Shown: positions 5,920 to 27,015 of the stretch, one piece after another
Position numbering within the stretch: the first letter of the stretch is position 1
Layout of the letters: the number at the start of each line of letters is the position of its first letter
Position numbers and translations under genes: made by a program
The notes under the pieces: model-generated
Databases searched by the model: none
What the model was told of the DNA's origin: nothing
Seen by the model: the letters and a program-made list of their open reading frames with translations, nothing else
DNA from: Pseudomonadota bacterium
Lineage (GTDB): Bacteria; Desulfobacterota; Desulfobacteria; Desulfobacterales; JAHIVH01
Assembly (NCBI GenBank): GCA_018816735.1
Contig: JAHIVH010000129.1
Coordinates: 479 to 64,478 of the forward strand
Reading direction: 5' to 3'
Length of the DNA: 64,000 nt

Positions 5920-9465
<3,546 letters not shown>

Positions 9466-9609: not shown

Positions 9610-10695
9610 TTACTGATCGATTGTCATGTGACAAACCCCTGTGGGTGTATTCTGTTGATAGGGGAAATACTTTTTCTTAAACCATAGCGCCACATTTACA
9701 AGACCGATGAGAACCGGAACCTCCACAAGCGGTCCGATCACTGCTGCAAATGCCTCCCCTGAATTGATGCCAAATACCGCCACGGCAACCGCAATGGCCA
9801 ATTCGAAATTATTTGAAGCTGCTGTAAAGCTTAACGTTGCGGCCTGCTCGTAGGTTGCCTTTGCCTTGATGGAAAGATAGAACGATAAAAAGAACATGAT
9901 GACGAAATAGATACAAAGCGGTATGGCAATCCTTATCACATCCATGGGAAGCTGTACAATGTACTCCCCTTTAAGAGAGAACATGATAAGGATAGTAAAG
10001 AGAAGTGCGATCAATGTCAAGGGACTGATCCTGGGGATGAATTTGTTCTCATACCAGTCTTTCCCTTTCATTTTAAGGCCGACGTATCGTGTAAGCATTC
10101 CGCCAATAAAGGGGATTCCCAGGTAGATAAATACACTTTCCGCAATCTGACCGATGGATATATCCACAACAATACTTTCAAGGCCGATCATTTTGGGTAT
10201 CAGTGTAATAAAGATATAGGCATAGATGGAAAAGAAAAGAACCTGAAAAATCGAATTAAAGGCCACAAGGCCAGCGCAATATTCGGTATCACCTGATGCA
10301 AGATCGTTCCACACAATGACCATGGCAATGCACCGGGCAAGCCCGATTAATATCAGGCCTACCATATATTCATGATGGCCTGATAGAAAAAGAACCGCCA
10401 GAACAAACATCAGTACCGGGCCGATAATCCAGTTCTGGATCAGAGATAAGGCAAGGATTTTGAAATTTCTGAAGACTTCCCCCAGCTCTTCATATTTAAC
10501 CTTGGCAAGAGGCGGGTACATCATGAGAATAAGGCCAATGGCGATAGGGATGTTGGTCGTCCCGATCTGGAATCGATTGATGATGCCACGAATGTCCGGA
10601 TACAGATAGCCGATTGTGACACCGATGAACATAGCCAGAAAAATCCATAAGGTCAGAAAACGATCGAGAAATGAAAGTCGTTTTGATTGAGGCAT
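9610..10695 (-). CDS. acr3: Arsenite efflux permease, ACR3 family
   Basis: 361 aa and polytopic. The N-terminus '[25 protein letters not shown]' and overall pattern are typical of Acr3/ArsB(ACR3). It is the last gene of the ars operon. Confidence 0.88.
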
Positions 10696-10725
10696 ATGGT
10701 ATTTCCTTTAAAGGTTTAAAACAGG

Positions 10726-11433
10726 TTATAACCGGATAAACGGACGGATGATAAAATAAATTCCCAAAAGAGATATCATCACGCCGGCACACTTCCTGAA
10801 CCAGTTTCCAGCTCCCTGTAATGTAGTGTTCTCGAGAAATTTTTTGACAACAGCTGTTGAACTGCCGGAAATGGCAATGGGCAGACAATGACCCACTGCA
10901 AAAAGAAAAATCATCATGACACCAACAGCGATTTTTTCCTGGACAGTGATAATGGCAAGGATCGGTGCGATAAAGCCAAATGTGCATGAACCGGAAAGAA
11001 TACCATAGGAAAGGCCTAAGATAAATGCCCCCCAAACCCCTTTCAGATTTAACCGGTGCAAAAAATTTCCGGATGTCTGACAGGCGTCAACACCCATCAT
11101 GCCCAACGCCACCCATATCAGTATTGCGCCGACCATTATTTGCCAGTAGTTCCCAATGTCTCCCATCATTCGGCCAAGAAAAGCACAAATAATGCCTACA
11201 AGTGCGATGGTGATAAAAAGGCCGGTTGTGAAAGCGGCAGCATATACGCTTGCCTGTCCGGGTTTTAAAATTTGCTTCTGTCCGCCGACGTATGCGATGA
11301 TCAAGGGGATGGATGCCAGATGGCATGGGCTGAATATAACGCTGATCACACCCCAGAGGAAGCATCCGAGAGCGGCAATGCCTGTGCCACTTGAAATCCA
11401 TTCGTTTATGGTGATAAAAGCTGACTCAAACAT
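10726..11433 (-). CDS. ccdA: CcdA/DsbD-type transmembrane thiol:disulfide electron transporter
   Basis: Polytopic, with the two conserved membrane cysteines in 'FSPCHLASIPLI' and 'SGSCTFGFIAPIL'. I placed the start at the ATG at 11433 (MFESAF...), 7 nt after the upstream stop. The track ORF extends to 11475. Confidence 0.8.
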   Translation of the reverse strand: MFESAFITINEWISSGTGIAALGCFLWGVISVIFSPCHLASIPLIIAYVGGQKQILKPGQASVYAAAFTTGLFITIALVGIICAFLGRMMGDIGNYWQIMVGAILIWVALGMMGVDACQTSGNFLHRLNLKGVWGAFILGLSYGILSGSCTFGFIAPILAIITVQEKIAVGVMMIFLFAVGHCLPIAISGSSTAVVKKFLENTTLQGAGNWFRKCAGVMISLLGIYFIIRPFIRL

Positions 11434-11440
11434 AGTATAT

Positions 11441-11842
11441 TTAGTTTCCCGGATGATCTTCAGGAGCAGGAACACCCAGTTTTTTCAATTGAGCTGTAAT
11501 TTCCGTTTCACTGAAGAATCCTGTATGCCGGAATACTTCCTTGCCATCCTTATCAAAAAATATCTGCGTTGGGATGGCCTGTATGCCAAATCGCGTGGCT
11601 TGTTCCCGATTCTCCCAGACATCGATGAATACAATCGACGCTTTGCCCTGATATACTTTTTCCATTTTTTCCATAATCGGCGCCATCATTTTGCAGGGAA
11701 TGCATTTTTGGGCACCCAGATCGATCATGGTAACCATTCCTTTTTGAGGAAATGAATCGATGGTTTCAGCGGCAGACGTAATTGCAGTCAATGAGAAGAC
11801 AAAAAATATTCCTGTGAATAGCAAGAAAACGGCAGATTTCAT
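11441..11842 (-). CDS. Secreted thioredoxin-fold protein (TlpA/ResA-like), CxxC = 'CIPC'
   Basis: 133 aa with signal peptide 'MKSAVFLLFTGIFFVFSLTAITSAAE' and thioredoxin motif 'GAQKCIPCKMMAP'. Confidence 0.8.
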   Translation of the reverse strand: MKSAVFLLFTGIFFVFSLTAITSAAETIDSFPQKGMVTMIDLGAQKCIPCKMMAPIMEKMEKVYQGKASIVFIDVWENREQATRFGIQAIPTQIFFDKDGKEVFRHTGFFSETEITAQLKKLGVPAPEDHPGN

Positions 11843-11899
11843 GATATATGTCCTGTAGCATGATTAACCAAAGTCATCACACCTGTTTAATGTGGTTTT

Positions 11900-12133
11900 T
11901 TATTTTTCCAGCCAATCTTTAATCTCTTTTTCTTTAGGTACTCTACCTGAGATTTTAACTTCACCGTCAACAACAACCGCAGGTGTGCTGAAAACACCGA
12001 AACCCGCTATCTGCATTAAGTCCGATACTTTTTCAACCGTGGCATCGATCTTGTTTTTTGTGACATAATCTCTTAATAGTTTTTCTGTTTTTTCACATTT
12101 GGCACAACCCGGCCCCAATATTTTAATTTCCAT
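11900..12133 (-). CDS. Small cytoplasmic thioredoxin-fold protein (redox-active disulfide protein 2 type)
   Basis: 'MEIKILGPGCAKCEKTEKL...TPAVVVDGEV'. I set the start at the ATG at 12133 with a GGAGA SD. The track ORF's N-terminal extension would overlap arsC. Confidence 0.8.
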   Translation of the reverse strand: MEIKILGPGCAKCEKTEKLLRDYVTKNKIDATVEKVSDLMQIAGFGVFSTPAVVVDGEVKISGRVPKEKEIKDWLEK

Positions 12134-12161
12134 TATTTTCTCCTTTTTGTTCTCATATTCG

Positions 12162-12608
12162 TTATGCTTCCAATGATCCCGGCATGTTTTCAACAAATGA
12201 GCGAATCTCGTCTCTTATCCGTCTGTAATGGCTCAAAATGACTGATTTGTCCGTTTCTCCTTCCGACAATTTGGGAGGATCGTCAAACCCCCGATGAAGC
12301 CTTTTTGTTCCTCTTGGGAAAAAAGGGCACGTTTCATTTGCGTGACCGCACAATGTCACCACATAATCAAATTGTATTTCTGCCACTTCATCGACACTTT
12401 TTGAGATATTTCCGGAAATATCAATCCCCAGTTCCAAAAGAACGTCTATGGCATTAGGGTCTATGCCTTTTGGGGCAGTTCCGGCTGAAAAGGCGCAAAA
12501 CAGGTCGCCTTTAAGTTTATGGGTCAATGCCTCGGCCATCTGGCTCCTGCAGGAATTGCCTGTGCATAAAAACAGAATATTAAAGTTTTTTTGATGTGTC
12601 ATTATCAT
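12162..12608 (-). CDS. arsC: Arsenate reductase, LMW-PTP / thioredoxin-coupled type
   Basis: 148 aa. P-loop 'LCTGNSCRSQMAEA' (C-X5-R-S), redox cysteine pair in 'TLCGHANETCP', and 'FDDP' Asp. Confidence 0.92.
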   Translation of the reverse strand: MIMTHQKNFNILFLCTGNSCRSQMAEALTHKLKGDLFCAFSAGTAPKGIDPNAIDVLLELGIDISGNISKSVDEVAEIQFDYVVTLCGHANETCPFFPRGTKRLHRGFDDPPKLSEGETDKSVILSHYRRIRDEIRSFVENMPGSLEA

Positions 12609-12645
12609 AATACTTCCTTATTCATTAAGCATTTTCATCTGTGTA

Positions 12646-13701
12646 TCAGATAATCACGTTAAAAATATATCCCACAATCAGGATGCCGCACGTCACAATG
12701 GCAATGAACACAGCGATCAGTCTGGGTTTTAAGACTTTTCTCAAAATAACCATTTCAGGAAGTGATAGCGCGATGACACTCATCATAAATGCCAATACGG
12801 TGCCTAGTGCCGCACCTTTACCGATAAGCGCCTCCACCACGGGAATGATTCCTGCGGCATTTGAATACATGGGAACCCCAATAATTACAGCCAGGGGCAC
12901 AGACCACCAGGCCGATTTCCCCATGATTGACGCCATCAAGTTTTCCGGCACGTATCCGTGAATCACTGCGCCTACGCCTATACCGAGAATGACATATAGC
13001 CAAACCCTTCCGATAATTTCTTTGACAGCGTCCCATCCATAGATAATTCGGTCAGACCAGGAGCGTTTTTCGTCCGGAATGGCATGGGGGCCGGCATGGG
13101 TGTCCATAACCCAGTCTTCAACGCCATTTTCAAGTTTAAGGCGTCCGATGACCCATCCGGCAAGGATGGCAATGGACAAACCCGTGCCCAGGTAAATTGC
13201 TGCGACTTTCCATCCCAGAAGAGCGTATAGAAGTCCCAATGCAATTTCATTGACCATGGGTGCTGCAATCAGGAAAGAAAATGTTACACCCAAAGGAACG
13301 CCTGCCGTGACAAAACCGATGAAAAGAGGTACGGCAGAGCATGAGCAGAACGGTGTGACAATCCCCAATAATGCGGCTAAAACGTTTCCTGCGAATTCGC
13401 TTCTTCCGGAAAGAACCGCACGTGTTTTTTCCGGCGTAAAAAAGCTTCGGATAATTCCCACGCCAAAAACGACCAGGAAAAGCAGCATCATCACTTTGGG
13501 GGTATCATAAAGAAAAAATTCTACCGCTTTTCCCAGATGGGAGTTTTCAGCAACGTTTAAAAGCCTGTAGGTTACCCATGAGGATAATTCCGGGAGCATA
13601 CCATATAAAATCCACCAGACATAGGTAAGCATGGCTCCGGAGATCAGGTAAAAAATAAATTTTTCGTTTTTGATGGTTTTTGTATTCATATAGCTTTTCA
13701 T
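12646..13701 (-). CDS. Predicted permease of the ArsP/DUF318 type (two-repeat membrane protein with a CxC motif)
   Basis: 351 aa and polytopic, with 'IVTPFCSCSAVPLFIGF'. Its position between arsR and arsC fits the organoarsenical permease family. The family assignment is from memory, not a search. Confidence 0.7.
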   Translation of the reverse strand: MKSYMNTKTIKNEKFIFYLISGAMLTYVWWILYGMLPELSSWVTYRLLNVAENSHLGKAVEFFLYDTPKVMMLLFLVVFGVGIIRSFFTPEKTRAVLSGRSEFAGNVLAALLGIVTPFCSCSAVPLFIGFVTAGVPLGVTFSFLIAAPMVNEIALGLLYALLGWKVAAIYLGTGLSIAILAGWVIGRLKLENGVEDWVMDTHAGPHAIPDEKRSWSDRIIYGWDAVKEIIGRVWLYVILGIGVGAVIHGYVPENLMASIMGKSAWWSVPLAVIIGVPMYSNAAGIIPVVEALIGKGAALGTVLAFMMSVIALSLPEMVILRKVLKPRLIAVFIAIVTCGILIVGYIFNVII

Positions 13702-13727
13702 AAATATATTAAAAAGAATTCTGTCAT

Positions 13728-14072
13728 TTACCGACCGCAGATATCCTCGCGGCGGACAGATGGCAGCTTATCGATCATGCCTTTTATTGCAGGATCGTCC
13801 TCAAGCCAGTGTTTCAGGTTACCCAGCAGATTGGCTGCATAGGGGCTGTCTTTCCCGTCTGAAAGATAATAATTGACCCACTTTTCCGTTTTCCGGGAAC
13901 ATACAAGGCCAGCTTCTTCCAGTATTTTTAAATGCTTGGAAACCGTAGGTTGCGCTATTCCTAAAACCTCGCGAAGCTCGCAAACACACATGGTCTTATG
14001 CTGAAGCAATTTAACAATTTTTGTCCTGTTTGGATCTGACAGGGCTTTTATCACTTTGGTGAACGCGTTCAT
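13728..14072 (-). CDS. arsR: ArsR/SmtB-family metalloregulator
   Basis: 'LSDPNRTKIVKLLQHKTMCVCELREVLGIAQPTVSKHLKILEEAGLV' (wHTH with a CVC sensing site). I placed the start at the ATG at 14072 (AGGA SD). The track ORF starts at 14114. Confidence 0.9.
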   Translation of the reverse strand: MNAFTKVIKALSDPNRTKIVKLLQHKTMCVCELREVLGIAQPTVSKHLKILEEAGLVCSRKTEKWVNYYLSDGKDSPYAANLLGNLKHWLEDDPAIKGMIDKLPSVRREDICGR

Positions 14073-14082
14073 TTTTATCCTC

Positions 14083-14102
14083 ATATTACTATGCGGTAAT
14101 AT
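14083..14102. promoter_or_regulatory. Candidate ArsR operator: 7-6-7 perfect inverted repeat ATATTAC-N6-GTAATAT
   Basis: Read directly: atattac (14083-14089), tatgcg, gtaatat (14096-14102). It lies 11 nt upstream of the arsR ATG. The background is AT-rich, so a chance occurrence is possible. Confidence 0.3.
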
Positions 14103-14250
14103 ATACCACCACATCTATTCGTCAAGGATAATATGTTTGATTCTTGGAAAAAAGTTGTTTTCCGGGTGGAAATTCGGCATATTGGTCCTTGAATATAGTT
14201 TATAGGCTTTTAAACGTATTTTTGTAATGATGTGAACAGGATGTTTGAAA

Positions 14251-14652
14251 ATGACCAAAAAGATCATGATTATTGATGATGAACCGGATATCCGGACGTA
14301 TCTGATGGCAATTTTAGAAGACAATGGATTTTCAGTATGCACGGTTTTGGATAATACGGAGGTCAAAAAAGGGGTGCTTTCAGAAAAGCCCGACCTCATT
14401 ATTCTTGATATCATGATGCCCCAGCGGTCCGGCATTTCTATATACAAGGAGCTTCGGACATGCAGTGCCTTAAATGCCATACCTGTGGCATTGATCAGTG
14501 GCATGATGCCGGAAAAGGATTTTATTGAAAAGGAGTTTCCCGCTCTGGTTGATGATAAAAGCGTATCCCCGCCAGACGGGTATATTGAAAAACCGGTCCA
14601 GGTGGAGAAGCTTGTTGCGCTGGTGACACAGCTTGTTGAAGAAAGAGGATAG
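14251..14652 (+). CDS. Stand-alone response-regulator receiver (CheY-like), RR1
   Basis: 'KIMIIDDEPDIR...KPDLIILDIMMPQRSG' with no output domain. ATG at 14251; the track uses the TTG at 14245. Confidence 0.9.
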   Translation: MTKKIMIIDDEPDIRTYLMAILEDNGFSVCTVLDNTEVKKGVLSEKPDLIILDIMMPQRSGISIYKELRTCSALNAIPVALISGMMPEKDFIEKEFPALVDDKSVSPPDGYIEKPVQVEKLVALVTQLVEERG

Positions 14653-14654
14653 TG

Positions 14655-16460
14655 ATGCCTGAAAAAATTAAATTAATGGACTGGATCAGGGAGCATCTGT
14701 TTAATGTGGTGCCCATGTCCATCGCGGTGATCGATAGAGACTTCAACCTTGTATATGCAAACAAGCCTTTTGAGGAGAAGTTTGGAAAGTGGAAAGGGAA
14801 AAAATGTTTTTCTGTTTATAAAAGCAGCACAACCATGTGTTTGAACTGCAAGGGCGCAGAAGCGTTTCAGGACGGAAAACCACGGGTAAACGAGGAGATC
14901 GGTTTTGATAAATCAGGAAAACTCACCAAATATATCAAACATACAATGCCGGTGGTTGATTCAGATGGAAGCATTCCGTTTCTGGTTGAAATGGCCACAG
15001 ATATCACAGAAGCTTCTATCATCAAAAAGGAATATCAACTTCTCTTTGACCAGGTACCCTGCAGTATCCTGGTTATTGACAGGAATTTCAGAATTGTACG
15101 AACCAATAAAAAAATTCGCGAAACATTTGGTGATCTGACAGGAAAGTATTGTTACAGCTCCCTTAAGGGTTTCAACGATAAATGTCTGGAATGCACGGCT
15201 AGAGATACGTTTTCAGACGGTGAAATGCATACCGGGAATCATGTGTGGCGAACAAAAGATGGTGAAGATATTCATTCTCACGTATCAACGGTGCCTCTTT
15301 TCAAGGAAGACGGGACATTTGACATGGTGATGGAAATGGCTGTGGATATTACCCATACACTTGAACTCGAGGATGAATTGAAAATCGCCTATTCTTTCAT
15401 GGAAACCATGATCGCCACGGCTATTGACGGTATCATCGCCATTGACATTGAAGGCGACATTATCATTTTTAACAAGGCTGCGAGAGATATTTTCAATATT
15501 CATGACAAGCGGAAAATGACAAAGATAGAGCTTGAGGTACTTCTTCCCGAAGGATTTATGGCTCAGGTGCTCTTGGGACCGGGACATGTTTATCTTCCTG
15601 AAGCATATGTCAAAACCATAGACGATGATAAAAAGCCGGTTCGGTTGTCAGGAAATAAAATTGAGTTTGGAGACGGAAAGTCCGGTATGGCATTTTCCAT
15701 ACAGGATTTAAGGGAGTTAAAGCGCCTTGAATCGGAAAAGCTCGAAGCCGAACGAATGGCTGCTGTGGGACAGACAGTGGCAGGCCTTGCCCATGGTGTC
15801 AAAAATCTGATAACCGGCCTTGAAGGCGGTATGTATATGATGAATTCCGGAATGAAGAAAGGCGATGTGGATAGAATTCAAAAAGGGCTTGAAATGCTCG
15901 ATAGAAATATCTTAAGGGTGTCGACTTTCGTAAAGGAATTTCTTAATTTTTCCAAAGGCCGTAAAATAAAAGTGGGTGAATGCGAACCTGGAAAAATTGC
16001 AAGAGACGTTGTGGAACTTTATGCCAGCCAGGCAGGAAAATTTTCTGTCGAGCTGATTTGCGAAACAGACGACAATATCATGCCTGCGCTTATGGATGGA
16101 GAAGGCATTCATGAATGTCTGACCAATCTCGTGGGAAACGCCATTGATGCGTGCCGGATGAGCGACAACCAAGGTGGCAATCATGTCTGGGTTAAAACTC
16201 ACGAAAAAGATGATGTGATTGTCTATGAAGTTGTTGACGATGGATGTGGAATGGATTACGAAGTCAAGAAAAAAGTCTTTACCAATTTTTTTACGACAAA
16301 AGGTCTGGGCGGAACTGGCATCGGCCTGTTAACGACCAAGAAAATCGTTCAGGAACATGGCGGGAAAATAGAACTTCAGTCTGAGGAGGGCAAGGGAACC
16401 ACTTTCAGGATTCGCCTGCCGAGAAACCGACTTCCCAAACCTGAATCAATTGATATTTGA
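14655..16460 (+). CDS. Soluble multi-PAS sensor histidine kinase with two C-x10-C-x2-C PAS domains (HK1)
   Basis: No TM segment. 'GKKCFSVYKSSTTMCLNCKG' and 'GKYCYSSLKGFNDKCLECTA'. H-box 'AGLAHGVKNLITGLEGG'. ATPase boxes 'NLVGNAIDA', 'DDGCGM' and 'GGTGIGL'. Confidence 0.9.
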   Translation: MPEKIKLMDWIREHLFNVVPMSIAVIDRDFNLVYANKPFEEKFGKWKGKKCFSVYKSSTTMCLNCKGAEAFQDGKPRVNEEIGFDKSGKLTKYIKHTMPVVDSDGSIPFLVEMATDITEASIIKKEYQLLFDQVPCSILVIDRNFRIVRTNKKIRETFGDLTGKYCYSSLKGFNDKCLECTARDTFSDGEMHTGNHVWRTKDGEDIHSHVSTVPLFKEDGTFDMVMEMAVDITHTLELEDELKIAYSFMETMIATAIDGIIAIDIEGDIIIFNKAARDIFNIHDKRKMTKIELEVLLPEGFMAQVLLGPGHVYLPEAYVKTIDDDKKPVRLSGNKIEFGDGKSGMAFSIQDLRELKRLESEKLEAERMAAVGQTVAGLAHGVKNLITGLEGGMYMMNSGMKKGDVDRIQKGLEMLDRNILRVSTFVKEFLNFSKGRKIKVGECEPGKIARDVVELYASQAGKFSVELICETDDNIMPALMDGEGIHECLTNLVGNAIDACRMSDNQGGNHVWVKTHEKDDVIVYEVVDDGCGMDYEVKKKVFTNFFTTKGLGGTGIGLLTTKKIVQEHGGKIELQSEEGKGTTFRIRLPRNRLPKPESIDI

Positions 16461-16488
16461 CAATATAACTGGTGAAATTACCTTACCA

Positions 16489-18243
16489 ATGAACGGGAAA
16501 AAAAATCTGGTATTATTCCTTGGAGACGGGGTAAATAATCTTCATCTGATTGCAGAGTGTCTGGCAAGAGAGATAAACAGGGAGCCTGTGGAATTTATCA
16601 GTGCATCCATGACGCCACCTCTGATTAATCCGTTAACCGCCAAGGTCATGCAGGCTTCGGGATTTGATATCTCAACGCTTCCTCTGCGTTCACTTCTTGA
16701 TGTGGAACCGTTCATGTTCGATTTGATTATCACCGTTGGAGATTTTGATCAGGATTGCAGACCCACGCTGCCGGGCATGCCGCCTCATTTTCACTGGGAT
16801 GTGCCTGATCCTCCGCCAGGTACAGATGTTGAAGAACTTTTCAGGTCCTTGAGAGAAGCAAAGGACATGATCCTCAATAAACTGGATACCATATTTTCTT
16901 CAGGACTATTGACGGCCCTTTTTGTAACACGACGAAAACTTGAAGTGATTATCGATAACCTCCTGGATGGTGTTATGGCGCATACCACCAATCGACGGAT
17001 TTTCTTTTTCAATAAGGCTGCGGAGAATATTACCGGATACAGACGGGAAGATATTCTGGGGAAAGACTGCCATGATGTTTTTCCTGGCAGGTTTTGCGGT
17101 GGGGATTGCGAATTCTGCGAAAGTGCAGAGAAAAATATGAAAGGTCATGTCATGAAAAAGGAAATCTTTTTCAGACGTCTGGAGGGAGATGAACGTGTTC
17201 TTAAAATGTCCATCATGCCGCTTTCAGATGAAGAGGGAAAGGATATTGGCGCACTTCTTTCATTCAGGGATGATACTGAACTGGATCAACTGAAAAGACG
17301 GCTAAGACATCATCATACGCTTGGAAATCTTGTGGGGAAAGACCCTAAAACACTGGAGCTTTTTGATCAGATCAGAGAAGTGAGCTCGGTAATGGTTCCG
17401 GTTTTGGTTGAAGGGGAGAGTGGCACAGGAAAAGAACTGGTGGCAAATGCCATTCATGATATTGGTCCCAGGACCGGGAAGCCTTTTGTTGCCATCAATT
17501 GCGGCGCATTGCCGGAAGGGATTCTCGAAAGTGAACTTTTTGGCCATGTCAGTGGTGCGTTTACAGGTGCCGTTCAGAACAGGAAAGGCCGATTCGAACT
17601 GGCTGACGGGGGAACGATTTTTCTGGACGAAGTGGGTGAACTGACGTCTGCCATGCAGGTTAAGCTGCTTCGCGTGCTTCAGGAAAAGAGATTTGAAAGG
17701 GTTGGGGGAGAAAAGACCATTCAGGTCGACGTCAGAGTGATTAGCGCTACAAATCAGAATTTAAAAGAGCTGATTGACAAAAAAATGTTCAGACGGGATC
17801 TGTATTACAGACTGTGCGTCATGCCTATTTCTCTTTTGCCTTTAAGGGAAAGACGCCTTGACATACCCACGCTGGTGGAACATTTTCTTGAAGTGATTGC
17901 AAGTGAGGTCAAGCGGTCTGTCCTGGTACCGTCCAATGATGTGATGGATGCATTGTCCCGTTATGACTGGCCGGGAAACGTAAGAGAGCTTCGAAACGCA
18001 ATCGAATACACGTATGTAAAATGCAGAACCGGAAAAATTATCCTGGACCACCTGCCTCCGGAGATTGTGAATTTCAAACAGAAAATAAAAGTTAAACCTG
18101 GCCCCTCTCTCAAGCACAACAAGGAGGAAGTGATCCTTGCGCTGTCACAATCTGAAGGCAACAGAAAAGAAGCTGCCAAAATTCTTGGCATCGGCCGAGC
18201 GACACTTTACCGGTATCTGGATGTTTATGAGCTTAATTCCTGA
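16489..18243 (+). CDS. Sigma-54-dependent transcriptional activator (bEBP): degenerate ArsC/LMW-PTP-like domain, Cys-rich PAS, AAA+, Fis-type HTH; no receiver domain
   Basis: AAA+ 'GESGTGKE', 'GAFTGA', 'ESELFGH', 'WPGNVREL'. C-terminal HTH 'NRKEAAKILGIGRATLYRYL'. PAS 'GKDCHDVFPGRFCGGDCEFCES'. The N-terminal ~130 aa is colinear with the ArsC at 12162-12608. The start is either the ATG at 16489 or the TTG at 16450. Confidence 0.9.
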   Translation: MNGKKNLVLFLGDGVNNLHLIAECLAREINREPVEFISASMTPPLINPLTAKVMQASGFDISTLPLRSLLDVEPFMFDLIITVGDFDQDCRPTLPGMPPHFHWDVPDPPPGTDVEELFRSLREAKDMILNKLDTIFSSGLLTALFVTRRKLEVIIDNLLDGVMAHTTNRRIFFFNKAAENITGYRREDILGKDCHDVFPGRFCGGDCEFCESAEKNMKGHVMKKEIFFRRLEGDERVLKMSIMPLSDEEGKDIGALLSFRDDTELDQLKRRLRHHHTLGNLVGKDPKTLELFDQIREVSSVMVPVLVEGESGTGKELVANAIHDIGPRTGKPFVAINCGALPEGILESELFGHVSGAFTGAVQNRKGRFELADGGTIFLDEVGELTSAMQVKLLRVLQEKRFERVGGEKTIQVDVRVISATNQNLKELIDKKMFRRDLYYRLCVMPISLLPLRERRLDIPTLVEHFLEVIASEVKRSVLVPSNDVMDALSRYDWPGNVRELRNAIEYTYVKCRTGKIILDHLPPEIVNFKQKIKVKPGPSLKHNKEEVILALSQSEGNRKEAAKILGIGRATLYRYLDVYELNS

Positions 18244-18289
18244 ATGGGGATCAAGGGAAGGGCTATGATGTCTACTACAGGGGTTTCCA

Positions 18290-19237
18290 ATGGATAAACC
18301 GCTACCCATTTTATACAGAAACGAATACAATATGGGCTTTATGGGCGTTCAGAGACTCCACCCCTTTGATTCGGAAAAATTTGGTAAAATCAAACGTTAT
18401 CTGATGACCCATGCAGGCCTTGAACCCTCATCTTTTGTTCGACCGGATCAGGCAATCAGTGAAGCGGAACTTCTCATCGTTCATACAAAAGCGTATCTTG
18501 AGTCTTTGAAGAAGTCTTCGACTGTGGCAAGAATTGCAGAGCTGAAACTCCTTGCTTTTTCGCCCAATCTCTTACTCCGGAAATTTTTTCTGGCACCAAT
18601 GAGATATGCAACTTTTGGGACCATTAAGGCTTCCGAGCTTGCGCTTGAAAGAGGTTGGGCCATTAATCTTTCAGGCGGGTATCATCACGCAAAACGCGTT
18701 GATGGGGACGGCTTCTGTTTTTATGCCGACATCCCCCTTGCCATCCGGAAATTGAGAGAGAAGAATAATTCCCTTAAAGCGTTGGTCATAGACCTTGATG
18801 CCCATCAGGGAAACGGTATTGAAGATTATTTTAAGGATGACAAAAATAGTTTTATCATGGATGTGTATAATCGGGAAATCTACCCTGAAGATGAGCCCAT
18901 GAAAGCACATATTGATTTTCATTTTCCGGTTGCCTCAGGCACCGGAGACAACGACTACCTCTCTCTACTTGAAACAAATGTCCCCCATGCCATTCGATCA
19001 TCAGGCCCGGACATCATTTTTTATAATGCAGGCACAGATATTCTTGATGGTGATCCACTGGGAAAGATGAACATTACGGATAACGGCATTGTCAAACGGG
19101 ATGAAATCGTTTTCAAGGCAGCCATGGACGCTAAAATCCCCATCGTCATGGTGTTGTCCGGCGGGTATACCAAACGTTCCGGTTTTGTGATCGGCAGATC
19201 GGTCACGAATCTTTTAAAGACCGTATTGCCGCGATAG
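18290..19237 (+). CDS. Zn-dependent deacetylase/deacylase of the histone deacetylase family, class IV (HDAC11-like)
   Basis: 'WAINLSGGYHHAKRVDGDGFCFYADI', 'VIDLDAHQGNG', 'YNAGTDILDGDPLG', 'VLSGGYTK'. All catalytic and Zn motifs are present. It is colinear end-to-end with my recollection of human HDAC11. Confidence 0.88.
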   Translation: MDKPLPILYRNEYNMGFMGVQRLHPFDSEKFGKIKRYLMTHAGLEPSSFVRPDQAISEAELLIVHTKAYLESLKKSSTVARIAELKLLAFSPNLLLRKFFLAPMRYATFGTIKASELALERGWAINLSGGYHHAKRVDGDGFCFYADIPLAIRKLREKNNSLKALVIDLDAHQGNGIEDYFKDDKNSFIMDVYNREIYPEDEPMKAHIDFHFPVASGTGDNDYLSLLETNVPHAIRSSGPDIIFYNAGTDILDGDPLGKMNITDNGIVKRDEIVFKAAMDAKIPIVMVLSGGYTKRSGFVIGRSVTNLLKTVLPR

Positions 19238-19440
19238 ACAGCACCTTTCTGTTTGTGAAAGAAAAGATTTTTGAGAGCATATTATTTAATATCTATTTTA
19301 TTATTCATTTTTATATTGCATCAATCAAGGATTATTGTCATTTATAAACGATTTGCCCATCATTATCATTTATCCATTTCATTCCTTCGTCTCACATTAA
19401 ATTCCCTTATAAGAATAATAATTAAAACTGTTTCGTGTCC

Positions 19441-19657
19441 CGTGTCTCAAGTTCGTTTCAGGTCACTTCTAAAGACATGCCATAATTAACGCATCTTCTG
19501 ATTAATTCGTAATTTCAGCCAACTATAAAAAGCGATCCATTGATCAGGACGCGGATTCCTCTGAATTATCCTGAGACACGATAAATATTCAACATCATAA
19601 AAATATATAACTAATTGTAATTATTTATATATTTTAATTTAATTTATTAGAGACACG
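19441..19657. repeat. Three copies of (T)GAGACACG in the sigma-54 promoter upstream region: candidate enhancer (UAS) sites
   Basis: cgtgtctca at 19441-19449 (minus orientation), tgagacacg at 19572-19580, and gagacacg at 19650-19657 abutting the -24 element. They are embedded in very AT-rich DNA. Confidence 0.45.
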
Positions 19658-19659
19658 TC

Positions 19660-19675
19660 TGGCACGAAATCTGCT
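19660..19675 (+). promoter_or_regulatory. Sigma-54 (-24/-12) promoter TGGCACgaaatCTGCt
   Basis: TGGCAC-N5-CTGC has the correct GG-N10-GC spacing, 46 nt upstream of the ATG at 19721. A bEBP gene lies 1.4 kb upstream. Confidence 0.6.
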
Positions 19676-19720
19676 CTTAACTCTATCGGCACATCTGAGG
19701 TTCAAAAAAAGGAAAACGCG

Positions 19721-19945
19721 ATGGATGGGAAAACCACAACAGACCTTGCGAACAAACATTTAAAAATGGTGATCGACCTTTGCTACGAGATGCTGGAATT
19801 GGCAGATCATGGTGATAAATTCCGGCTGGATACCGGTTGTGGCGTCGTATATGGGACTTTGCGGGATGTGGCGTATAAGGTGAGAAAACTCGCTGAGAAA
19901 GAACTTGTGCAGCATGGTACGGAAGAGAGTTACCAAGGAGAATAG
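19721..19945 (+). CDS. Small hypothetical protein (74 aa), first ORF behind the sigma-54 promoter
   Basis: ATG preceded by 'AAAGGAAAACGCG'. Helical-looking, non-low-complexity sequence 'LKMVIDLCYEMLELADHGDKFRLDTGCGVVYGTLRDVAYKVRKLAEKEL'. No family recognised. Confidence 0.55.
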   Translation: MDGKTTTDLANKHLKMVIDLCYEMLELADHGDKFRLDTGCGVVYGTLRDVAYKVRKLAEKELVQHGTEESYQGE

Positions 19946-20046
19946 ACAGCGTACATACCTTGAATAAGGTTTATTTTTTAACCATAATTAACCGGAAGAG
20001 GCGGGATGCAAAGGTTTCCTCTTCCTAAAAAAAGGAAAAACTGAAG

Positions 20047-20430
20047 ATGAGCGAAAAGAAAAAAATTTTGGTAGTGGATGATGAAAAAGACGTCCTGACC
20101 TATCTGACCACACTTCTTGAAGACAACGGCTATGAAACTGTTTCTGCCGGAGATGGACTGAAAGGGTTTGATCTTGCCAAGAGCGAAAAACCGGATCTGA
20201 TCACCCTGGATATCACCATGCCGGATCAATCCGGTGTAAGGACATATCGCTATTATAAGGAAGATGAAGAATTAAAAGATATACCTGTCATCATTGTCAC
20301 GGCTATTGGCGATTCCATGAGAAGTTTTTTGAAGAAACTGGCTGGTTTTAAGGAACCGGAAGGATTTATGAACAAACCGATAGATGAAGCCGAACTTTTG
20401 AAAATGGTTTCGGATCTTTTAAATAAATAA
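20047..20430 (+). CDS. Stand-alone response-regulator receiver, RR2
   Basis: 'KILVVDDEKDV...KPDLITLDITMPDQSG...IPVIIVTA', 127 aa, no output domain. Confidence 0.9.
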   Translation: MSEKKKILVVDDEKDVLTYLTTLLEDNGYETVSAGDGLKGFDLAKSEKPDLITLDITMPDQSGVRTYRYYKEDEELKDIPVIIVTAIGDSMRSFLKKLAGFKEPEGFMNKPIDEAELLKMVSDLLNK

Positions 20431-20488
20431 GCCTTTGTTGTCAGAAGAAGATACCCATTCTGTCAATGAGTGATTAAAGGAGAATGAA

Positions 20489-21427
20489 ATGTCTCAATTT
20501 GTGTATGTTGTTGCGTATCTGTCGATCATTGTTTTTTTTGTTGCGGTCGTAAAAAAGATCAAGAATTATCTGGACAAACCCATTCATGTCAGGTGGGAGC
20601 TTTATCCGGTTGCCCATGAGGGCGGTGGGCGAGATCAATATGGTGGAAGCTATCTGGAAGACGTGGGCTGGTGGGGAAAAGAACGGGACGTGTCTATGAT
20701 CGGTGAGTTAAAGGTCATGATTCCCGAAATCCTTTTGCTTAAAGCAGTATGGGAACATAATCGTCCCCTGTGGTATGCGACTTACCCCTTTCATCTTGGA
20801 CTTTATCTGATTGTCGGGTTTATAGGAACCCTTCTGGTTACATCCGTTTCAGGACTGATCGGCCTTGAACATGCGTTTTATATGTTACCTGTGTCTGCGT
20901 TGACCAATTTGCTTGGCCCTGCCGGATTCATTTTATGCATCGCAGGGGCTTTGGGCCTTATTTATAAAAGGATGACCGATCCGGGGTTAAAAAATTATTC
21001 AAGCCCCGGGCATTTCTTCAATCTGATGCTCTTTATTGTGACCATGGGTGTGGCAACACTTACCTGGCTTTTTGTCGATCCTTCATTTCAACTTACCAGA
21101 CAGTTTGTGTCCAATCTGATCAGTTTCAACATAGCGCCGATTGACAGTTCATTGTTTATGGTTCAGGTGATTTTGGGCGTTCTGACCCTGGCATACATTC
21201 CTCTGACGCATATGTCCCATTTTTTTATGAAGTATTTTCTCTATCACGATATCAGGTGGGGTGACGAGCCAAATATCAATACCCCGAAAACCGATGCAAA
21301 GATAGGTATTGTGTTGAATTATCCCGTAAGCTGGTCTGCGTCTCACATTGCAGGACACGGCAAGGAAACCTGGGCTGAAGTCGCCACTTTTAACCCCGCA
21401 GCAGAACCGGAAGAAGGAAAGGAGTAA
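20489..21427 (+). CDS. NarI/DsrM-like integral-membrane cytochrome b (quinol-interacting subunit)
   Basis: 312 aa with multiple TM helices carrying conserved His ('YPFHLGLY', 'IPLTHMSHFFMKYFLYHD'). It is paired 3 nt upstream of an HdrD/DsrK-like gene. Confidence 0.7.
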   Translation: MSQFVYVVAYLSIIVFFVAVVKKIKNYLDKPIHVRWELYPVAHEGGGRDQYGGSYLEDVGWWGKERDVSMIGELKVMIPEILLLKAVWEHNRPLWYATYPFHLGLYLIVGFIGTLLVTSVSGLIGLEHAFYMLPVSALTNLLGPAGFILCIAGALGLIYKRMTDPGLKNYSSPGHFFNLMLFIVTMGVATLTWLFVDPSFQLTRQFVSNLISFNIAPIDSSLFMVQVILGVLTLAYIPLTHMSHFFMKYFLYHDIRWGDEPNINTPKTDAKIGIVLNYPVSWSASHIAGHGKETWAEVATFNPAAEPEEGKE

Positions 21428-21430
21428 AAA

Positions 21431-23026
21431 ATGAGCAATAAAAATGTGAATATCAAAGATATCGGCAAAGATACAAAAAAACTGGCAAGTGTCGCCAATG
21501 AAGATCTAATGCCTCTCCCCGGATGGGATGCAGAAGAAAATGAATGGGCGGAAATTCCTGCAGAGACAAAGGGAAAATATGCCTGTATTCTGGATGATGT
21601 CTGTATACTGCCCATACCCATGCCCAAAACCGTCAAGGAAGAGGAAGCGCTCGTCAACACGTTTATTGATGGCATGAGAAAGCTTTTTACCAAGGAAAAC
21701 AACTGGACATTTCTGGCCATGCTCGATACATCCATGGAACATTGTGCCAAATGCAATACCTGCTCAGAAGCCTGCCATCTCTACGAAGCAACCGGTGGGC
21801 ATGAAATGTACCGTCCGAATTTCCGTTCGGAGATTTTCAGAAGAATATATAAAAAATATGTTAAAAAAGAACCCTTCGCCAAATGGCGAAACGGAGATGT
21901 CGATCTGAACTGGCGTACGATCGCGAGACTTGGAGAGCTGGCCTATCGGTGTAATGTCTGCAGGAGGTGCGCTCAAACTTGCCCGATTGGTGTGGATAAT
22001 GCGCTGATTGCCCGTGAAATCCGAAAGATTTTCAGTCAGGAATTGGGGATTTCGCCCCCTGAACTTCATGAAAAAGGCTCCATGTATCAGCTTAAAACCG
22101 GTTCTTCCACCCAGATGACCAAGCTGGTTGTCAAGGATAACGTGGAATTTATTGATGAGGACTTTTCCGAAGAAACGGGTTTTGAATTCAAAACCCCCTG
22201 GGATGTGGAAGGTGCGGATATTCTTTTGATTCATAATGCCGGTGAGATCATGGCCTGGCCGGAGAATATCGCCGCGTTTTCTATTATTTTTGAGGCCGCC
22301 GGTCTGTCATGGACGCTTTCAAGTGACCTGGCAGCCTATGACAGCATTAACTACGGTGTGTTTTATGACGATGTCCAGTTTGCCAGAACAGCCATTCTTC
22401 AGGCCCAGGCAGCCAAAAAACTCGGTGTGAAAAGAATCGTTCTTGGAGAGTGTGGGCACGCGCATAAAGCATTGACAGTTATTGCAGACAGGGTTCTTCC
22501 TGAACCGTTGAAAGTGCCCAGAGAAAGTTGCTTTCCACTTTTAAGGGATATTGTCATGTCAGGTAAAATCAAGTTCGATCCTGAGCGCAACAATTTTCCG
22601 GTCACCCTTCATGATCCGTGCAATGTGACACGCCTGATGGGAATCATCAAACCGCAGCGTGAAATCATGGCAAAACTCTGTCCCCAATTCCGTGAAATGA
22701 ATCCTCATGGGCCGCATAATTATTGCTGCGGTGGGGGAAGCGGATATGCCATTATGTCCAGAAACAATATTCCGGAATGGCGATATAAAATTACGGGCAG
22801 GAAAAAAATGGAGCAGATCTTTAATGCCTTTTCAGATTGCAGAGGGCCGGAAACAAAAAAATACGTCTGTGCCCCCTGTTCAAATTGCAAAGGGCAGCTG
22901 AGAGATCTTTTTGAAAGGTATGAAATGCTCGAAAAGGAAAATATGACTTACAGCGGGGTTGTCGAACTGATTGTAAATGCAATGGTTGATGTTGAGCCGG
23001 GTTTTATCAAGTGGGGAGAAGAGTAG
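21431..23026 (+). CDS. HdrD/DsrK-like iron-sulfur protein with CCG domains
   Basis: Two ferredoxin motifs 'CAKCNTCSEACHLY' and 'CNVCRRCAQTCPIG'. CCG-domain signatures 'HDPCN' and 'NYCCGGGSG...CAPCSNCKGQL'. Confidence 0.8.
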   Translation: MSNKNVNIKDIGKDTKKLASVANEDLMPLPGWDAEENEWAEIPAETKGKYACILDDVCILPIPMPKTVKEEEALVNTFIDGMRKLFTKENNWTFLAMLDTSMEHCAKCNTCSEACHLYEATGGHEMYRPNFRSEIFRRIYKKYVKKEPFAKWRNGDVDLNWRTIARLGELAYRCNVCRRCAQTCPIGVDNALIAREIRKIFSQELGISPPELHEKGSMYQLKTGSSTQMTKLVVKDNVEFIDEDFSEETGFEFKTPWDVEGADILLIHNAGEIMAWPENIAAFSIIFEAAGLSWTLSSDLAAYDSINYGVFYDDVQFARTAILQAQAAKKLGVKRIVLGECGHAHKALTVIADRVLPEPLKVPRESCFPLLRDIVMSGKIKFDPERNNFPVTLHDPCNVTRLMGIIKPQREIMAKLCPQFREMNPHGPHNYCCGGGSGYAIMSRNNIPEWRYKITGRKKMEQIFNAFSDCRGPETKKYVCAPCSNCKGQLRDLFERYEMLEKENMTYSGVVELIVNAMVDVEPGFIKWGEE

Positions 23027-23167
23027 GCCCCAAAAAGTCAGTCCTCACCTCTTGCTTAAAGGACGAATAAACCTGAAACAGGCGGCCTTTTCGTATGTGT
23101 GGTATCGCTTTGATCAATACCCCTCCCGCATACGCCAAGGCCGCCAAAATAAAAAAGGACTTATAAA

Positions 23168-23695
23168 ATGGCACACGCATCTGAAAAGAAAATTCTGGTT
23201 GTTGATGATGAACCGGATGTCAGGCATTTTCTCGCCGCATGCCTGGAAGACGCAGGGTTCAATGTGGAAACTGCTGTGGATGGTGTTGACGCCCTTGAAA
23301 AGGTTAAAACAAATACACCTGATCTGATAACTCTTGACATGGTCATGCCCAGAAGGTCAGGCATTAATTTCCTGCGAAAATTAAGAAAAGAGAAAAAGGA
23401 ATGGGCCAATATTCCGGTAATTGTCATCACTGCCCATGCCAGAGATGAATTTGGAAGTGAAGACATTCAGGAATTCCAAGCTTTTGCAGCACGTCATCGA
23501 CCACGATGCACGCTTGAAAAACCGATTACCCCATCGAGTCTTGTCAAGGCCATCAGCGAGATTTTAGACGTTGAAACCGATATGCTGGAAAAAAGCCGGA
23601 AAGAGGGAGATGACAATCGTGAAGACCTGATCCGGATGATACAACAGACCGATCCGGAAACATTGAAAAAGATTCAGACGATGTTGAACAAGTAG
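23168..23695 (+). CDS. Response-regulator receiver with a ~50-aa acidic/helical C-terminal tail, RR3
   Basis: 'KILVVDDEPDVR...TPDLITLDMVMPRRSG...IPVIVITA', then 'DVETDMLEKSRKEGDDNREDLIRMIQQTDPETLKKIQTMLNK'. Confidence 0.88.
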   Translation: MAHASEKKILVVDDEPDVRHFLAACLEDAGFNVETAVDGVDALEKVKTNTPDLITLDMVMPRRSGINFLRKLRKEKKEWANIPVIVITAHARDEFGSEDIQEFQAFAARHRPRCTLEKPITPSSLVKAISEILDVETDMLEKSRKEGDDNREDLIRMIQQTDPETLKKIQTMLNK

Positions 23696-23794
23696 GTTTT
23701 ATTCAATTACCCGTAATTGATTCTGACCGTAATTGGGAAACGTGGAGCCTTGTCCTTTGAGGATAAATAGAATGTCAACTGTCAGGTTTTTTCT

Positions 23795-24853
23795 ATGAAT
23801 CAAAATTTTCAAGTCATTTCGTCTTCTCCGGACCAGCTTTATCAGATGATTATTGATCTTCTTCCGTGCTATATTTCCATTCAGAATAATGACCTGGAAA
23901 TTCTCTATACCAATAAATCGTTCTTGAATGATTTTGGTGAGGCCACAGGCCGGAAATGTCATGATGTTCTCAAATGCTCCGCATTTATGTGCGGGGAATG
24001 CCCGGTTAAAAAATCGTTTGAAGACAATGCCATTCATTTTGGCGAGGATTCCGTACTCACAAGAGAGGGGGCACCGATTCAACTTCTGGTATACGCCGTT
24101 CCGATACCTGCCGGAAGGGACCGATCGGTGATAGAGTTTTCCATTGATATTTCAAAAATTAAAAATACCCAGAAAGAACTGGCGCTTCTGGGGCGATCAG
24201 TAGCCCTTATCTCTCATGGCATCAAAAATTTGCTGGAAGGGCTTCATGGCGGGGAGTATGTGGTTGATGAAGGATTAAGAGAGGAAAACTGGCCGCTTGT
24301 TGAAAAAGGGTGGAAAGTCGTAAAAAATAACATCATTGATATTTCAATGATTGCTCAAAATATTCTTTATTCTTCCAAAAAGAAGGCATTGACCATCGAA
24401 AAGGTAAAGCCAGGCGAGATGGTCAAACGCGTTGTCAGCATGCTTAATGAAAAAGCCCTTTCAATGGGCGTTTCTCTGCGAGCCGAGGTCAATCCCTATC
24501 TGCCTGAGGCCAGGCTCGACCAGTTCACCATAAAAAAAATGTTGATTAACCTGATCTCAAATGCACTTGAAGCCTGTGAAAGGGATAGGGAAAAAAACAA
24601 TCATTTTGTGGTGGCAAGGGCACTTGCCTATAACGAGCTTCAGTATAAATTTGAAGTTGAAGACAATGGTATCGGCATGGATGAAGACATGCGAAAAAAA
24701 ATTTTCCAGGAGTTTTTTTCAACCCGGGGGACGAGTGGCACCGGTTTGGGCCTGTCGGTTGTTGAAACCATTGTAAAAGAACACCAGGGCAAGATTGAAG
24801 TTGAATCCGTGCCCGGCCAAAAAAGTCTTTTTCGAATTATTTTTACCTATTAA
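23795..24853 (+). CDS. Soluble PAS histidine kinase with a 4-Cys motif (HK2), paralogous to HK1
   Basis: 'GRKCHDVLKCSAFMCGECPV'. H-box 'ALISHGIKNLLEGLHGG'. 'NLISNALEA', 'DNGIGM' and 'GTGLGL'. No TM segment. Confidence 0.9.
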   Translation: MNQNFQVISSSPDQLYQMIIDLLPCYISIQNNDLEILYTNKSFLNDFGEATGRKCHDVLKCSAFMCGECPVKKSFEDNAIHFGEDSVLTREGAPIQLLVYAVPIPAGRDRSVIEFSIDISKIKNTQKELALLGRSVALISHGIKNLLEGLHGGEYVVDEGLREENWPLVEKGWKVVKNNIIDISMIAQNILYSSKKKALTIEKVKPGEMVKRVVSMLNEKALSMGVSLRAEVNPYLPEARLDQFTIKKMLINLISNALEACERDREKNNHFVVARALAYNELQYKFEVEDNGIGMDEDMRKKIFQEFFSTRGTSGTGLGLSVVETIVKEHQGKIEVESVPGQKSLFRIIFTY

Positions 24854-24868
24854 AGAGGAGGAAGATGC

Positions 24869-26994: not shown

Positions 26995-27015
26995 CCAAAA
27001 GACATTGAAATTGTT

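Follow-up and report, generated by a model that had tools for sequence, protein, structure and literature searches.

Sigma-54 activators are classed by their sensory domain, such as a receiver, GAF, PAS, V4R or CARF domain. The locus described here raises the question of what such an activator may sense and control when its N-terminus has the fold of an arsenate reductase. The window analysed, a stretch of 64,000 nucleotides (nt) of contig JAHIVH010000129.1 from a member of the Desulfobacterales, contains a gene (16489..18243, +) for a sigma-54 activator, or bacterial enhancer-binding protein (bEBP), of 584 amino acids (aa). Analyses of its open reading frame (ORF) and Pfam searches place in it, in this order, a dead ArsC-like domain, a Cys-rich PAS domain, an AAA+ domain and a helix-turn-helix (HTH) domain. 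A preliminary description of this gene, made from the DNA letters alone, had proposed a catalytically dead ArsC/low-molecular-weight protein tyrosine phosphatase (LMW-PTP) fold as the input domain, had pointed to the ars operon nearby and had considered oxyanions or thiol state as possible inputs. The reading that we favour, with moderate confidence, takes the protein for an OrpR-type sigma-54 activator that responds to redox state (Fe-S PAS, AAA+ and HTH domains) and carries an ArsC-descended N-terminal domain (N-domain) as a non-catalytic gate or scaffold.

The ArsC-like N-terminal domain of the activator

The start of the activator was assigned to the ATG at 16489, which lies within a TTG-initiated ORF from 16450 in the ORF list; orthologues and an identical 584-aa public protein start at this ATG, and initiation at the in-frame TTG (16450) is possible. 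The N-domain comprises aa 1-138 (16489..16902, +), as recognised by BLASTP, phmmer, profile, AlphaFold2/Foldseek and orthologue-alignment analyses. It is followed by a PAS domain (aa 150-265; 16936..17283, +; Pfam PAS_9/PAS_4) with a putative [4Fe-4S] site (nt 17068-17118), by the AAA+ sigma-54 interaction domain (aa 281-447; 17329..17829, +) and by a Fis-type HTH_8 DNA-binding domain (aa 545-575; 18121..18213, +; Pfam). The activator matched Sigma54_activat (PF00158) with E 7e-70, and its translation contains the Walker A/B and GAFTGA motifs of bEBPs (GESGTGKE, GAFTGA and FLDEV), so that the AAA+ domain looks active. As the preliminary description had stated, there is no receiver domain: Pfam found no Response_reg match in the activator, only PAS, Sigma54_activat, AAA_lid_14 and HTH_8, so that its organisation is not of the NtrC type. 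The C-terminal HTH domain and a nearby -24/-12 promoter with upstream repeats, for which binding is predicted, are also those expected of a bEBP, and on these motifs the protein was classed as a bona fide one.

Residues 1-144 were 27% identical over 133 residues to the ArsC encoded at 12162-12608 (-) in the same window (BLASTP, E 3e-11), which bears out the resemblance of the first ~130 aa noticed by eye in the preliminary description; all the peptides quoted there are present in both proteins. Searches against the PDB by phmmer matched the LMW phosphatase/ArsC2 8p5n (E 2.8e-8), Bacillus subtilis ArsC 1jl3 (E 2e-5) and the Staphylococcus aureus pI258 arsenate reductase, and a profile of 42 orthologous N-domains matched ArsC 2ipa/1jl3 at E 1e-15. 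An AlphaFold2 model of the N-domain (predicted local distance difference test score, pLDDT, 88.9) was compared by Foldseek, and the top 22 matches were all ArsC structures, with template modelling (TM) scores of 0.73-0.82 (target-normalised); the best of them had TM scores of 0.75-0.82 and E ~1e-8. The fold returned for the N-terminus was thus that of ArsC and not an unrelated one, and model, Foldseek and profile agree on the four-stranded parallel alpha/beta LMW-PTP/ArsC fold with its beta1-alpha1 phosphate-loop position. The N-domain is homologous to the thioredoxin-coupled ArsC/LMW-PTP enzymes, and the similarity is far beyond chance. Pfam assigned no family to residues 1-144 even at E<=10, below its gathering threshold, and a precomputed PF01451 match was present in a single orthologue (P0097).

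When the N-domain by itself served as the query, a word-indexed search for homologues gave no match. The full-length query succeeded, retrieving at least 119 clusters at 90% identity whose members are 58-77% identical to the window protein over the full length; these orthologues are referred to below as the dead clade. Residues at the catalytic positions were counted over 118 of them. The nucleophilic Cys10 of ArsC corresponds to G12 in the window protein (G, S or A across the orthologues) and Arg16 corresponds to L18 (L, V or F); a C-X5-R-(S/T) loop was not found, and Cys or Arg occurred at these positions in 0/118. Cys82 was replaced or deleted in 118/118, an invariant G84 taking its place, so that only C90, the equivalent of Cys89, remains of the Cys82-Cys89 redox pair. 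This residue was kept in 106/118 and the general-acid Asp (D107) in 99/118, both points going beyond the preliminary description, and the former anion loop contained D or E in 84/118. Compared with ArsC of S. aureus pI258 and B. subtilis (PF01451/TIGR02691), the N-domain therefore keeps the fold (TM ~0.8), a homology that can be recognised in the sequence, the equivalent of Cys89, the HW motif and the Asp that acts as general acid; it differs in having no Cys10, Arg16 or Cys82, in being invisible to Pfam and in being fused to a transcription activator, and it cannot be an enzyme of this kind. Since the nucleophilic Cys, the Arg and Cys82 are missing, the N-domain, judged by its residues, cannot carry out arsenate reduction or phosphate-ester hydrolysis. 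The loss of Cys and Arg from the phosphate loop, the replacement of the first redox Cys by Gly, and the conclusion that the fold is kept and catalysis lost had all been put forward from the window protein and held throughout the clade (Foldseek, profile and residue counts).

With all its chemistry gone, the N-domain might be an evolutionary relic serving folding or solubility only, the PAS domain doing all the sensing. OrpR-like activators function without such a domain, and activators of ~453 aa with PAS and AAA+ domains and no ArsC domain adjoin several of the orthologous loci. This explanation is nevertheless very unlikely. The N-domain was full-length in every untruncated orthologue, and its mean pairwise identity within the dead clade was 55%, close to that of the PAS (63%) and HTH (64%) domains (AAA+, 79%). 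Moreover, the motifs C-R/P-x2-LPG-x-P...W-x3-DP and LF-x-G-x-L-x-AL...R (the linker), together with the C-terminal helix, persist and are common to the dead clade and to a sister clade with an intact N-domain (see below). From this pattern the N-domain is under purifying selection and not decaying.

The cysteine-rich PAS domain and the predicted target operon

In Desulfovibrio vulgaris Hildenborough, the sigma-54 activator OrpR (DVU2106), with the domains PAS-AAA+-HTH, has a Cys motif that binds a redox-sensitive [4Fe-4S] cluster and gates sigma-54 activation (PMC8359166). The PAS domain of the window protein contains the motif C194-x-D196-x6-C203-x3-C207-x2-C210, whose offsets 0/+2/+9/+13 are identical to those of C52, D/E54, C61 and C65 of OrpR (PMC8359166); the C-x-(D/E)-x6-C-x3-C signature of the Fe-S PAS domain is thus present. 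Across the 118 orthologues the four Cys residues were invariant (118/118), and D or E occupied position 196 in 116/118. Both activators have the order PAS-AAA+-HTH, three PAS Cys and an acidic residue with the same spacing, an anaerobic Desulfobacterota host and a gene beside their own sigma-54 target. OrpR differs in that it has no ArsC-like N-domain, binds the palindrome GGGCGYRTTTTGCGCCC and controls the orp (cell-division-related) operons (PMC8359166), whereas in the window activator a fourth Cys is invariant, the repeats are of the TGAGACA type and the target is the operon of the small protein and the DsrMK-like module. Neither the N-terminal position of the PAS domain, nor the GGGCGYRTTTTGCGCCC site, nor the orp targets by which an OrpR orthologue would be recognised were found. 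Because of this extra domain, different upstream activating sequence and different targets, the window activator was taken to resemble OrpR in its sensor and output domains and not to be its orthologue. Since the PAS-AAA+-HTH core has in OrpR a characterised relative that is a [4Fe-4S] redox sensor, the main sensor is probably the PAS domain rather than the pseudo-enzyme. The preliminary description had left the input to the pseudo-enzyme and/or the adjacent 4-Cys PAS domain; the invariance and OrpR spacing of the Cys residues make the second a likely input, and the first is probably not the main sensor.

A sigma-54 -24/-12 promoter, TGGCACGAAATCTGC, was found by motif scan at 19660..19674 (+), 47 nt before a small gene. 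Its conservation extends to 13 other orthologous loci, which have a GG-N10-GC element in the corresponding position, to two further dead-clade loci, L027 and L028, and to the intact-clade loci L021, L023 and L026. Upstream of it are two repeats proposed as activator-binding sites, CGTGTCTCA at 19441..19449 (-), which is the reverse complement of TGAGACACG, and TGAGACACG itself at 19572..19580 (+), ~85 bp before the promoter; a third repeat, AGAGACACG (GAGACACG core), abuts the promoter at 19649..19658 (+). The octamer TGAGACAC occurs only twice in the 64 kb, at 19442-19449 and 19572-19579. Over 14 loci, the frequency of GAGACA/TGTCTC was 6.4 per kb within 450 bp upstream of the small gene, as against 0.36 per kb in the rest of these sequences, a 17-fold enrichment. 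This conservation and the enriched repeats support the suggestion of the preliminary description that the promoter at 19660 is involved, and make it the likely target of the activator. A generic sigma-70 promoter and terminator scan of positions 14000-25500 gave nothing clearly above shuffled expectation. TGGCAC-N5-TTGC has a single perfect match in the 64 kb, at 11375-11389 (-), inside the CcdA-like coding sequence (~0.1 expected by chance); with no TGAGACA repeats nearby, it was treated as a chance match and not as a real promoter.

The first gene of the predicted target operon (19721..19945, +) encodes a 74-aa helical-hairpin protein with an invariant Cys40 (GCGVV). Neither Pfam nor NCBIfam has a family that it matched, searches of PDB and Pfam with a profile of the small proteins were also empty, and the single-sequence model gave only a helical hairpin (pLDDT 80). 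The genes that follow encode RR2, a DivK-like stand-alone receiver (20047..20430, +); a DsrM-like (NarI-type) membrane cytochrome b (20489..21427, +; Pfam Nitrate_red_gam), kept in 15/16 loci; a DsrK-like iron-sulfur/CCG protein (21431..23026, +; Pfam Fer4_8 and CCG); RR3, a receiver with a C-terminal extension (23168..23695, +); and, at the end of the cluster, HK2, a histidine kinase with a Cys-rich PAS domain (23795..24853, +). The DsrK-like protein scored 315 bits, below the NCBIfam DsrK cut-off of 400, and was for this reason classed as a DsrK paralogue. The same series (a small protein of 70-80 aa, RR2, a NarI/DsrM-like protein, a DsrK-like CCG protein, RR3 and often HK2) was found in 15/16 dead-clade loci.

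According to the favoured reading, the activator would bind the TGAGACA repeats at 19441-19658. Redox potential or oxygen would alter a [4Fe-4S] cluster on C194/C203/C207/C210, and this change would lead to oligomerisation and to remodelling of sigma-54 polymerase at 19660. Transcription of the small protein, the two receivers and the DsrMK-like menaquinone-linked iron-sulfur module would follow. The dead ArsC domain would do no thiol sensing; it would gate or scaffold through its long C-terminal helix, which feeds into the PAS domain, and might be the contact point through which the activator is influenced by a histidine kinase (HK1) or a receiver (RR1) encoded upstream, or by the small Cys protein. 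We infer the role of non-catalytic gate or scaffold as the most economical one for a retained N-domain.

The intact sister clade, the small cysteine protein and a probable role in oxygen defence

An exhaustive profile search with the N-domain graded continuously into ordinary ArsC proteins and, on the way, revealed sister activators of equal length and architecture with an intact N-domain (for example P0147, with CTGNSARS ... TLCAHAAENCR ... DP). A search seeded with three of these intact sisters retrieved at least 120 further clusters at 90% identity, all flagged PF01451; where a source is given, it is a metagenome-assembled genome (MAG) from the Thermodesulfobacteriota, Planctomycetota, Verrucomicrobiota, Lentisphaerae, Poribacteria or Bacillota. 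CX5R, Cys82 and Cys89 were present together in 81/123 intact-type sequences, and Asp105 in 112/123. Dead-clade sequences, where their source is named, come from Desulfobacterales or Thermodesulfobacteriota MAGs; 19 dead-clade loci are in species-representative genomes, including Desulfosudis oleivorans, Desulfocicer, Desulfobacterium and Desulfosalsimonadaceae, and some of these 19 are in MAGs labelled Myxococcota. In a neighbour-joining (NJ) tree rooted on adjacent PAS-AAA+ activators without an ArsC domain, the dead clade was monophyletic and nested among intact-type sequences, with a few other independent degenerations. By its sequence, the window protein is therefore placed as a degenerate derivative of a wider ArsC-PAS-AAA+ activator family with the full Cys10/Arg16/Cys82/Cys89 set. 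The preliminary description knew of no characterised bEBP with this input architecture, and our literature search likewise found no paper on a bEBP with an LMW-PTP/ArsC-type input domain, nor on the predicted regulon. The architecture itself is neither unique nor rare, given the clusters with PF01451 in several phyla: this type of input is the N-terminal part of hundreds of proteins, which belong to Desulfobacterota, Planctomycetota, Verrucomicrobiota, Lentisphaerae and Poribacteria.

Members of the intact clade (for example P0147, P0354, P0274 and P0385) share with the window protein the four-domain architecture, the PAS Cys motif, the linker helix and the LPG-x-P motif, as well as TGTCTCA repeats, a sigma-54 promoter and a downstream small single-Cys protein. 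They differ in keeping CX5R, Cys82 and Cys89, in having no upstream HK1-RR1 pair, and in preceding operons with rubrerythrin, desulfoferrodoxin, rubredoxin, superoxide dismutase (SOD), cytochrome bd and thioredoxin/DsbD instead of the DsrMK-like module. TGTCTCA repeats and sigma-54-type promoters were also found upstream of the intact-clade small genes. The small proteins are homologous across clades, with the pattern LA-x-EG...D-x-x-C-x-V-x-YG-x-x-RD-x-AYK-x-R and nine invariant columns, including the Cys. Since DNA motif, promoter type and first target gene are common to both clades, these were regarded as one family-wide system, which we refer to as the LMWPc-PAS-sigma54 family; the window locus has all its features (ArsC-homologous N-domain, Cys-PAS, AAA+ and HTH domains, small single-Cys protein and TGTCTCA repeats).

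In six of the ten intact-clade loci (L021, L023, L024 in part, L026, L029 and L030) the gene after the activator encodes a small protein of 66-81 aa, and beyond it lie genes of oxygen defence: rubrerythrin, desulfoferrodoxin, rubredoxin, Ni-SOD, cytochrome bd, ferritin, Fpg, thioredoxin-like proteins and DsbD. From this gene content, the ancestral regulon of the family looks like oxygen or oxidative-stress defence. Enzymes of the ArsC/LMW-PTP type have a low-pKa P-loop Cys and a disulfide cascade that thioredoxin can reset. By analogy, the intact ArsC domain is plausible as a second sensor, of thiol or peroxide; in the window clade such sensing by ArsC chemistry is, from the residues that remain, impossible. 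To our knowledge, many anaerobes have no characterised OxyR or PerR circuits. Because genes for rubrerythrin, superoxide reductase, rubredoxin, cytochrome bd and thioredoxin/DsbD follow its intact members, the family is a strong candidate for the missing oxygen or oxidative-stress regulator in anaerobes. A literature search on sigma-54 control of rubrerythrin found no account of the ArsC-PAS-AAA+ architecture. A parallel is PexR of Myxococcus xanthus, also a bEBP with an N-terminal sensor, which autoinhibits it, and which controls oxidative-stress genes through sigma-54 promoters and dyad repeats; PexR differs in having a Zn/Fe GAF sensor of H2O2, in its targets ahpC and katB and in belonging to another phylum (PMC12754779). 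In our view, the most interesting outcome is this unstudied multi-phylum family, with its predicted oxygen-defence regulon and co-inherited small Cys protein, and not the connection to ars genes.

The co-inheritance of the small protein also bears on a thiol relay, in which C90 and the Cys of the small protein would form a reversible mixed disulfide that controls the activator, and the DsrMK-like module could reduce this disulfide with menaquinol electrons. C90 is retained by most orthologues despite the loss of the nucleophile, the Arg and Cys82, and the small protein with its invariant Cys accompanies the activator in both clades. The small-protein Cys was present in 15/15 dead-clade pairs whose activator has C90, and the one C90-less activator with a known partner, that of L028, is paired with a small protein that has Ser instead; this covariation, however, amounts to a single informative case, and C90 is not invariant. 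Thioredoxin attacks Cys89 of ArsC, and solved complexes of the two exist (2ipa). DsrK-type CCG proteins are disulfide reductases (Hdr/Dsr enzymes), yet the intact-clade operons contain no DsrK-like gene, and the gene of the small protein might just be the one with which the structural part of the regulon begins. Weighing these points, we consider the relay improbable. We give as little credence to a further reading, in which the sigma-54 activator would be controlled by a thiol-disulfide partner switch made up of the ArsC-derived domain and the ~70-aa single-Cys hairpin, with the DsrMK-like complex resetting the C90 disulfide. In intact members, the Cys10-Cys82-Cys89 cascade would sense peroxide or thiol oxidation and be reset through Cys89; in the window clade, C90 would pair with the small-protein Cys and the induced DsrMK-like complex would reduce the disulfide with menaquinol electrons. 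If true, the redox state of the quinone pool would feed into transcription, which would be a new signalling logic and would give DsrMK-type modules a new role outside sulfur metabolism.

Two family members (4402-6288 and 10001-11806) were found in the metagenomic locus L028. One has a Pfam-detectable LMWPc domain with Ser for the nucleophilic Cys and the Arg kept, and lies beside genes for hemerythrin, NifS/NifU and two receivers. The other belongs to the dead clade and has no C90; downstream of it come a small protein without Cys and an operon of the HmcABCDEF type.

The kinase and receiver genes, the ars operon and the surroundings of the cluster

The activator of the window is the third gene of a unit that starts with RR1 (14245..14652, +; Pfam), a stand-alone DivK-like receiver kept upstream of HK1 in the orthologous loci, and continues with HK1 (14652..16460, +), a histidine kinase with three PAS domains with Cys motifs, directly upstream of the activator. 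These genes suggest another role for the dead ArsC domain, as a docking surface for HK1, in the manner of NifL on NifA, or for phosphorylated RR1, through which the AAA+ domain would be switched, thiol chemistry having been exchanged for kinase input. HK1 was directly upstream of the activator in 17 of the 20 informative dead-clade loci and in 0/10 intact-clade loci, and RR1, HK1 and the activator stayed together in those loci, too, in which the cluster as a whole is rearranged (L012, L014, L017 and L018). HK1 retains its H-box and GHKL domain, and the activator has no receiver of its own. The NifL-NifA pair is similar in that a gene for a PAS-containing histidine-kinase-like protein lies directly upstream of, and is presumably co-transcribed with, that of a receiver-less redox-responsive bEBP; it differs in that NifA has a GAF domain and NifL phosphorylates no receiver, whereas at the level of genes the window has a stand-alone receiver before the kinase. 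On the other side, the RR1-HK1 pair is apart from the activator in L006, no HK1 is nearby in L002 and L016, and RR2, RR3 and HK2 of the same cluster could be the real partners of HK1. Furthermore, the best-fitting family for RR1, RR2 and RR3 alike was the DivK-like DVU0259 family and not NtrC, and no Asp that could accept phosphate was invariant in the N-domain among the 118 orthologues. Simple phosphotransfer models are therefore unsupported: RR1 was not retained as a detached NtrC receiver, nor the N-domain as a phospho-acceptor. Docking is rather unlikely, and less probable than the redox-responsive PAS with a non-catalytic gate or scaffold. The recruitment of HK1/RR1 coincides with the loss of ArsC chemistry, and their input may pass through the N-domain; the small Cys protein is the alternative source of input, and the pairing of C90 with the small-protein Cys, a single informative case, speaks for it.

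Several points weigh against the gate or scaffold reading and the oxygen-defence ancestry. The likeness of the PAS domain to that of OrpR rests on motif spacing and domain order and not on an alignment; that the protein binds a cluster and DNA, and whether it responds to oxidation or to reduction, are matters of deduction from sequence; and the role of the dead domain is the weakest step of the explanation. RR1 being DivK-like, a simple detached-receiver model is unsupported. As regards the family, the NJ tree carries no support values, four of the ten intact-clade loci have no oxygen-defence operon beside the activator, and one divergent dead-clade member precedes an Hmc-like operon and not DsrMK-like genes. 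With these reservations, the window protein can be seen as a natural experiment, in which a sensor derived from an enzyme would have been stripped of its chemistry and yet conserved, a kinase pair recruited and the output re-targeted to a DsrMK-like membrane redox module. The predicted motif, promoter and partners make it a clean case for the reuse of pseudo-enzyme domains in signalling.

Divergent from RR1 lies a complete ars-type operon (9610-14114, -), encoding ArsR (13728-14114, -), an ArsP_1 permease (12646-13701, -), the thioredoxin-type ArsC (12162-12608, -; 128 bits, below the TIGR02691 cut-off of 174), two thioredoxin-like proteins (11900-12196 and 11441-11842, -), a CcdA/DsbD-like protein (10726-11475, -) and ACR3 (9610-10695, -). 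A similar ArsR-ArsM-ArsP-Trx-DsbD set is at the same place in L027. Its position, and the retained fold of an oxyanion-binding enzyme, would fit a dead ArsC domain that senses an oxyanion (arsenate, arsenite, phosphate or sulfate) and ties the activator to the ars operon. An oxyanion was one of the inputs considered in the preliminary description, and this reading is very unlikely. Arg16, which would bind the anion, and the CX5R loop are lost, and most orthologues carry an acidic residue within the loop. Besides, only 2 of ~20 orthologous loci (the window and L027) have ars genes beside the activator, the ars-RR1 intergenic region contains neither a sigma-54 element nor TGAGACA repeats, and the conserved target is the small-protein/DsrMK-like operon. 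The adjacency noted earlier thus stands for the window, and the functional link was rejected on the neighbourhood counts and the missing sigma-54/TGAGACA elements; as far as gene order and motifs can tell, the adjacency is mostly coincidence and the ars operon is outside the activator system.

Other features of the cluster and its surroundings were also recorded. The PAS domains of HK1 contain the Cys motifs C-x10-C-x2-C and C-x11-C-x2-C, and HK2 contains C-H-D-x3-C-x5-C-x2-C, which suggests that both kinases could be further metal or Fe-S sensors in the circuit. Between the activator and the predicted target promoter, the window has a gene of the histone-deacetylase family (18290-19237, +; Pfam Hist_deacetyl, E 1e-55), which was absent from the equivalent position in all other loci examined. 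An extra DsrK-like paralogue, ~28-30% identical to the DsrK-like protein of the window, is encoded between the activator and the small gene in L001 (12569-13753, +) and L002 (8440-9672, +). In several orthologous loci a second activator, of ~453 aa, with PAS and AAA+ domains and no ArsC-like domain is encoded divergently upstream of RR1-HK1, where the window has the ars operon (L001, 5204-6526, -; L002, 3268-4593, -; L004, 1793-3097, -; L009, 298-1305, -). Finally, the cluster of the window is enclosed, at 25618-30974 (+) and 5926-9465 (+), by a gene for pyruvate:ferredoxin oxidoreductase on one side and, on the other, an Rnf operon with its full gene set (RnfC, D, G, E, A, B), in a region rich in energy-metabolism and redox genes.

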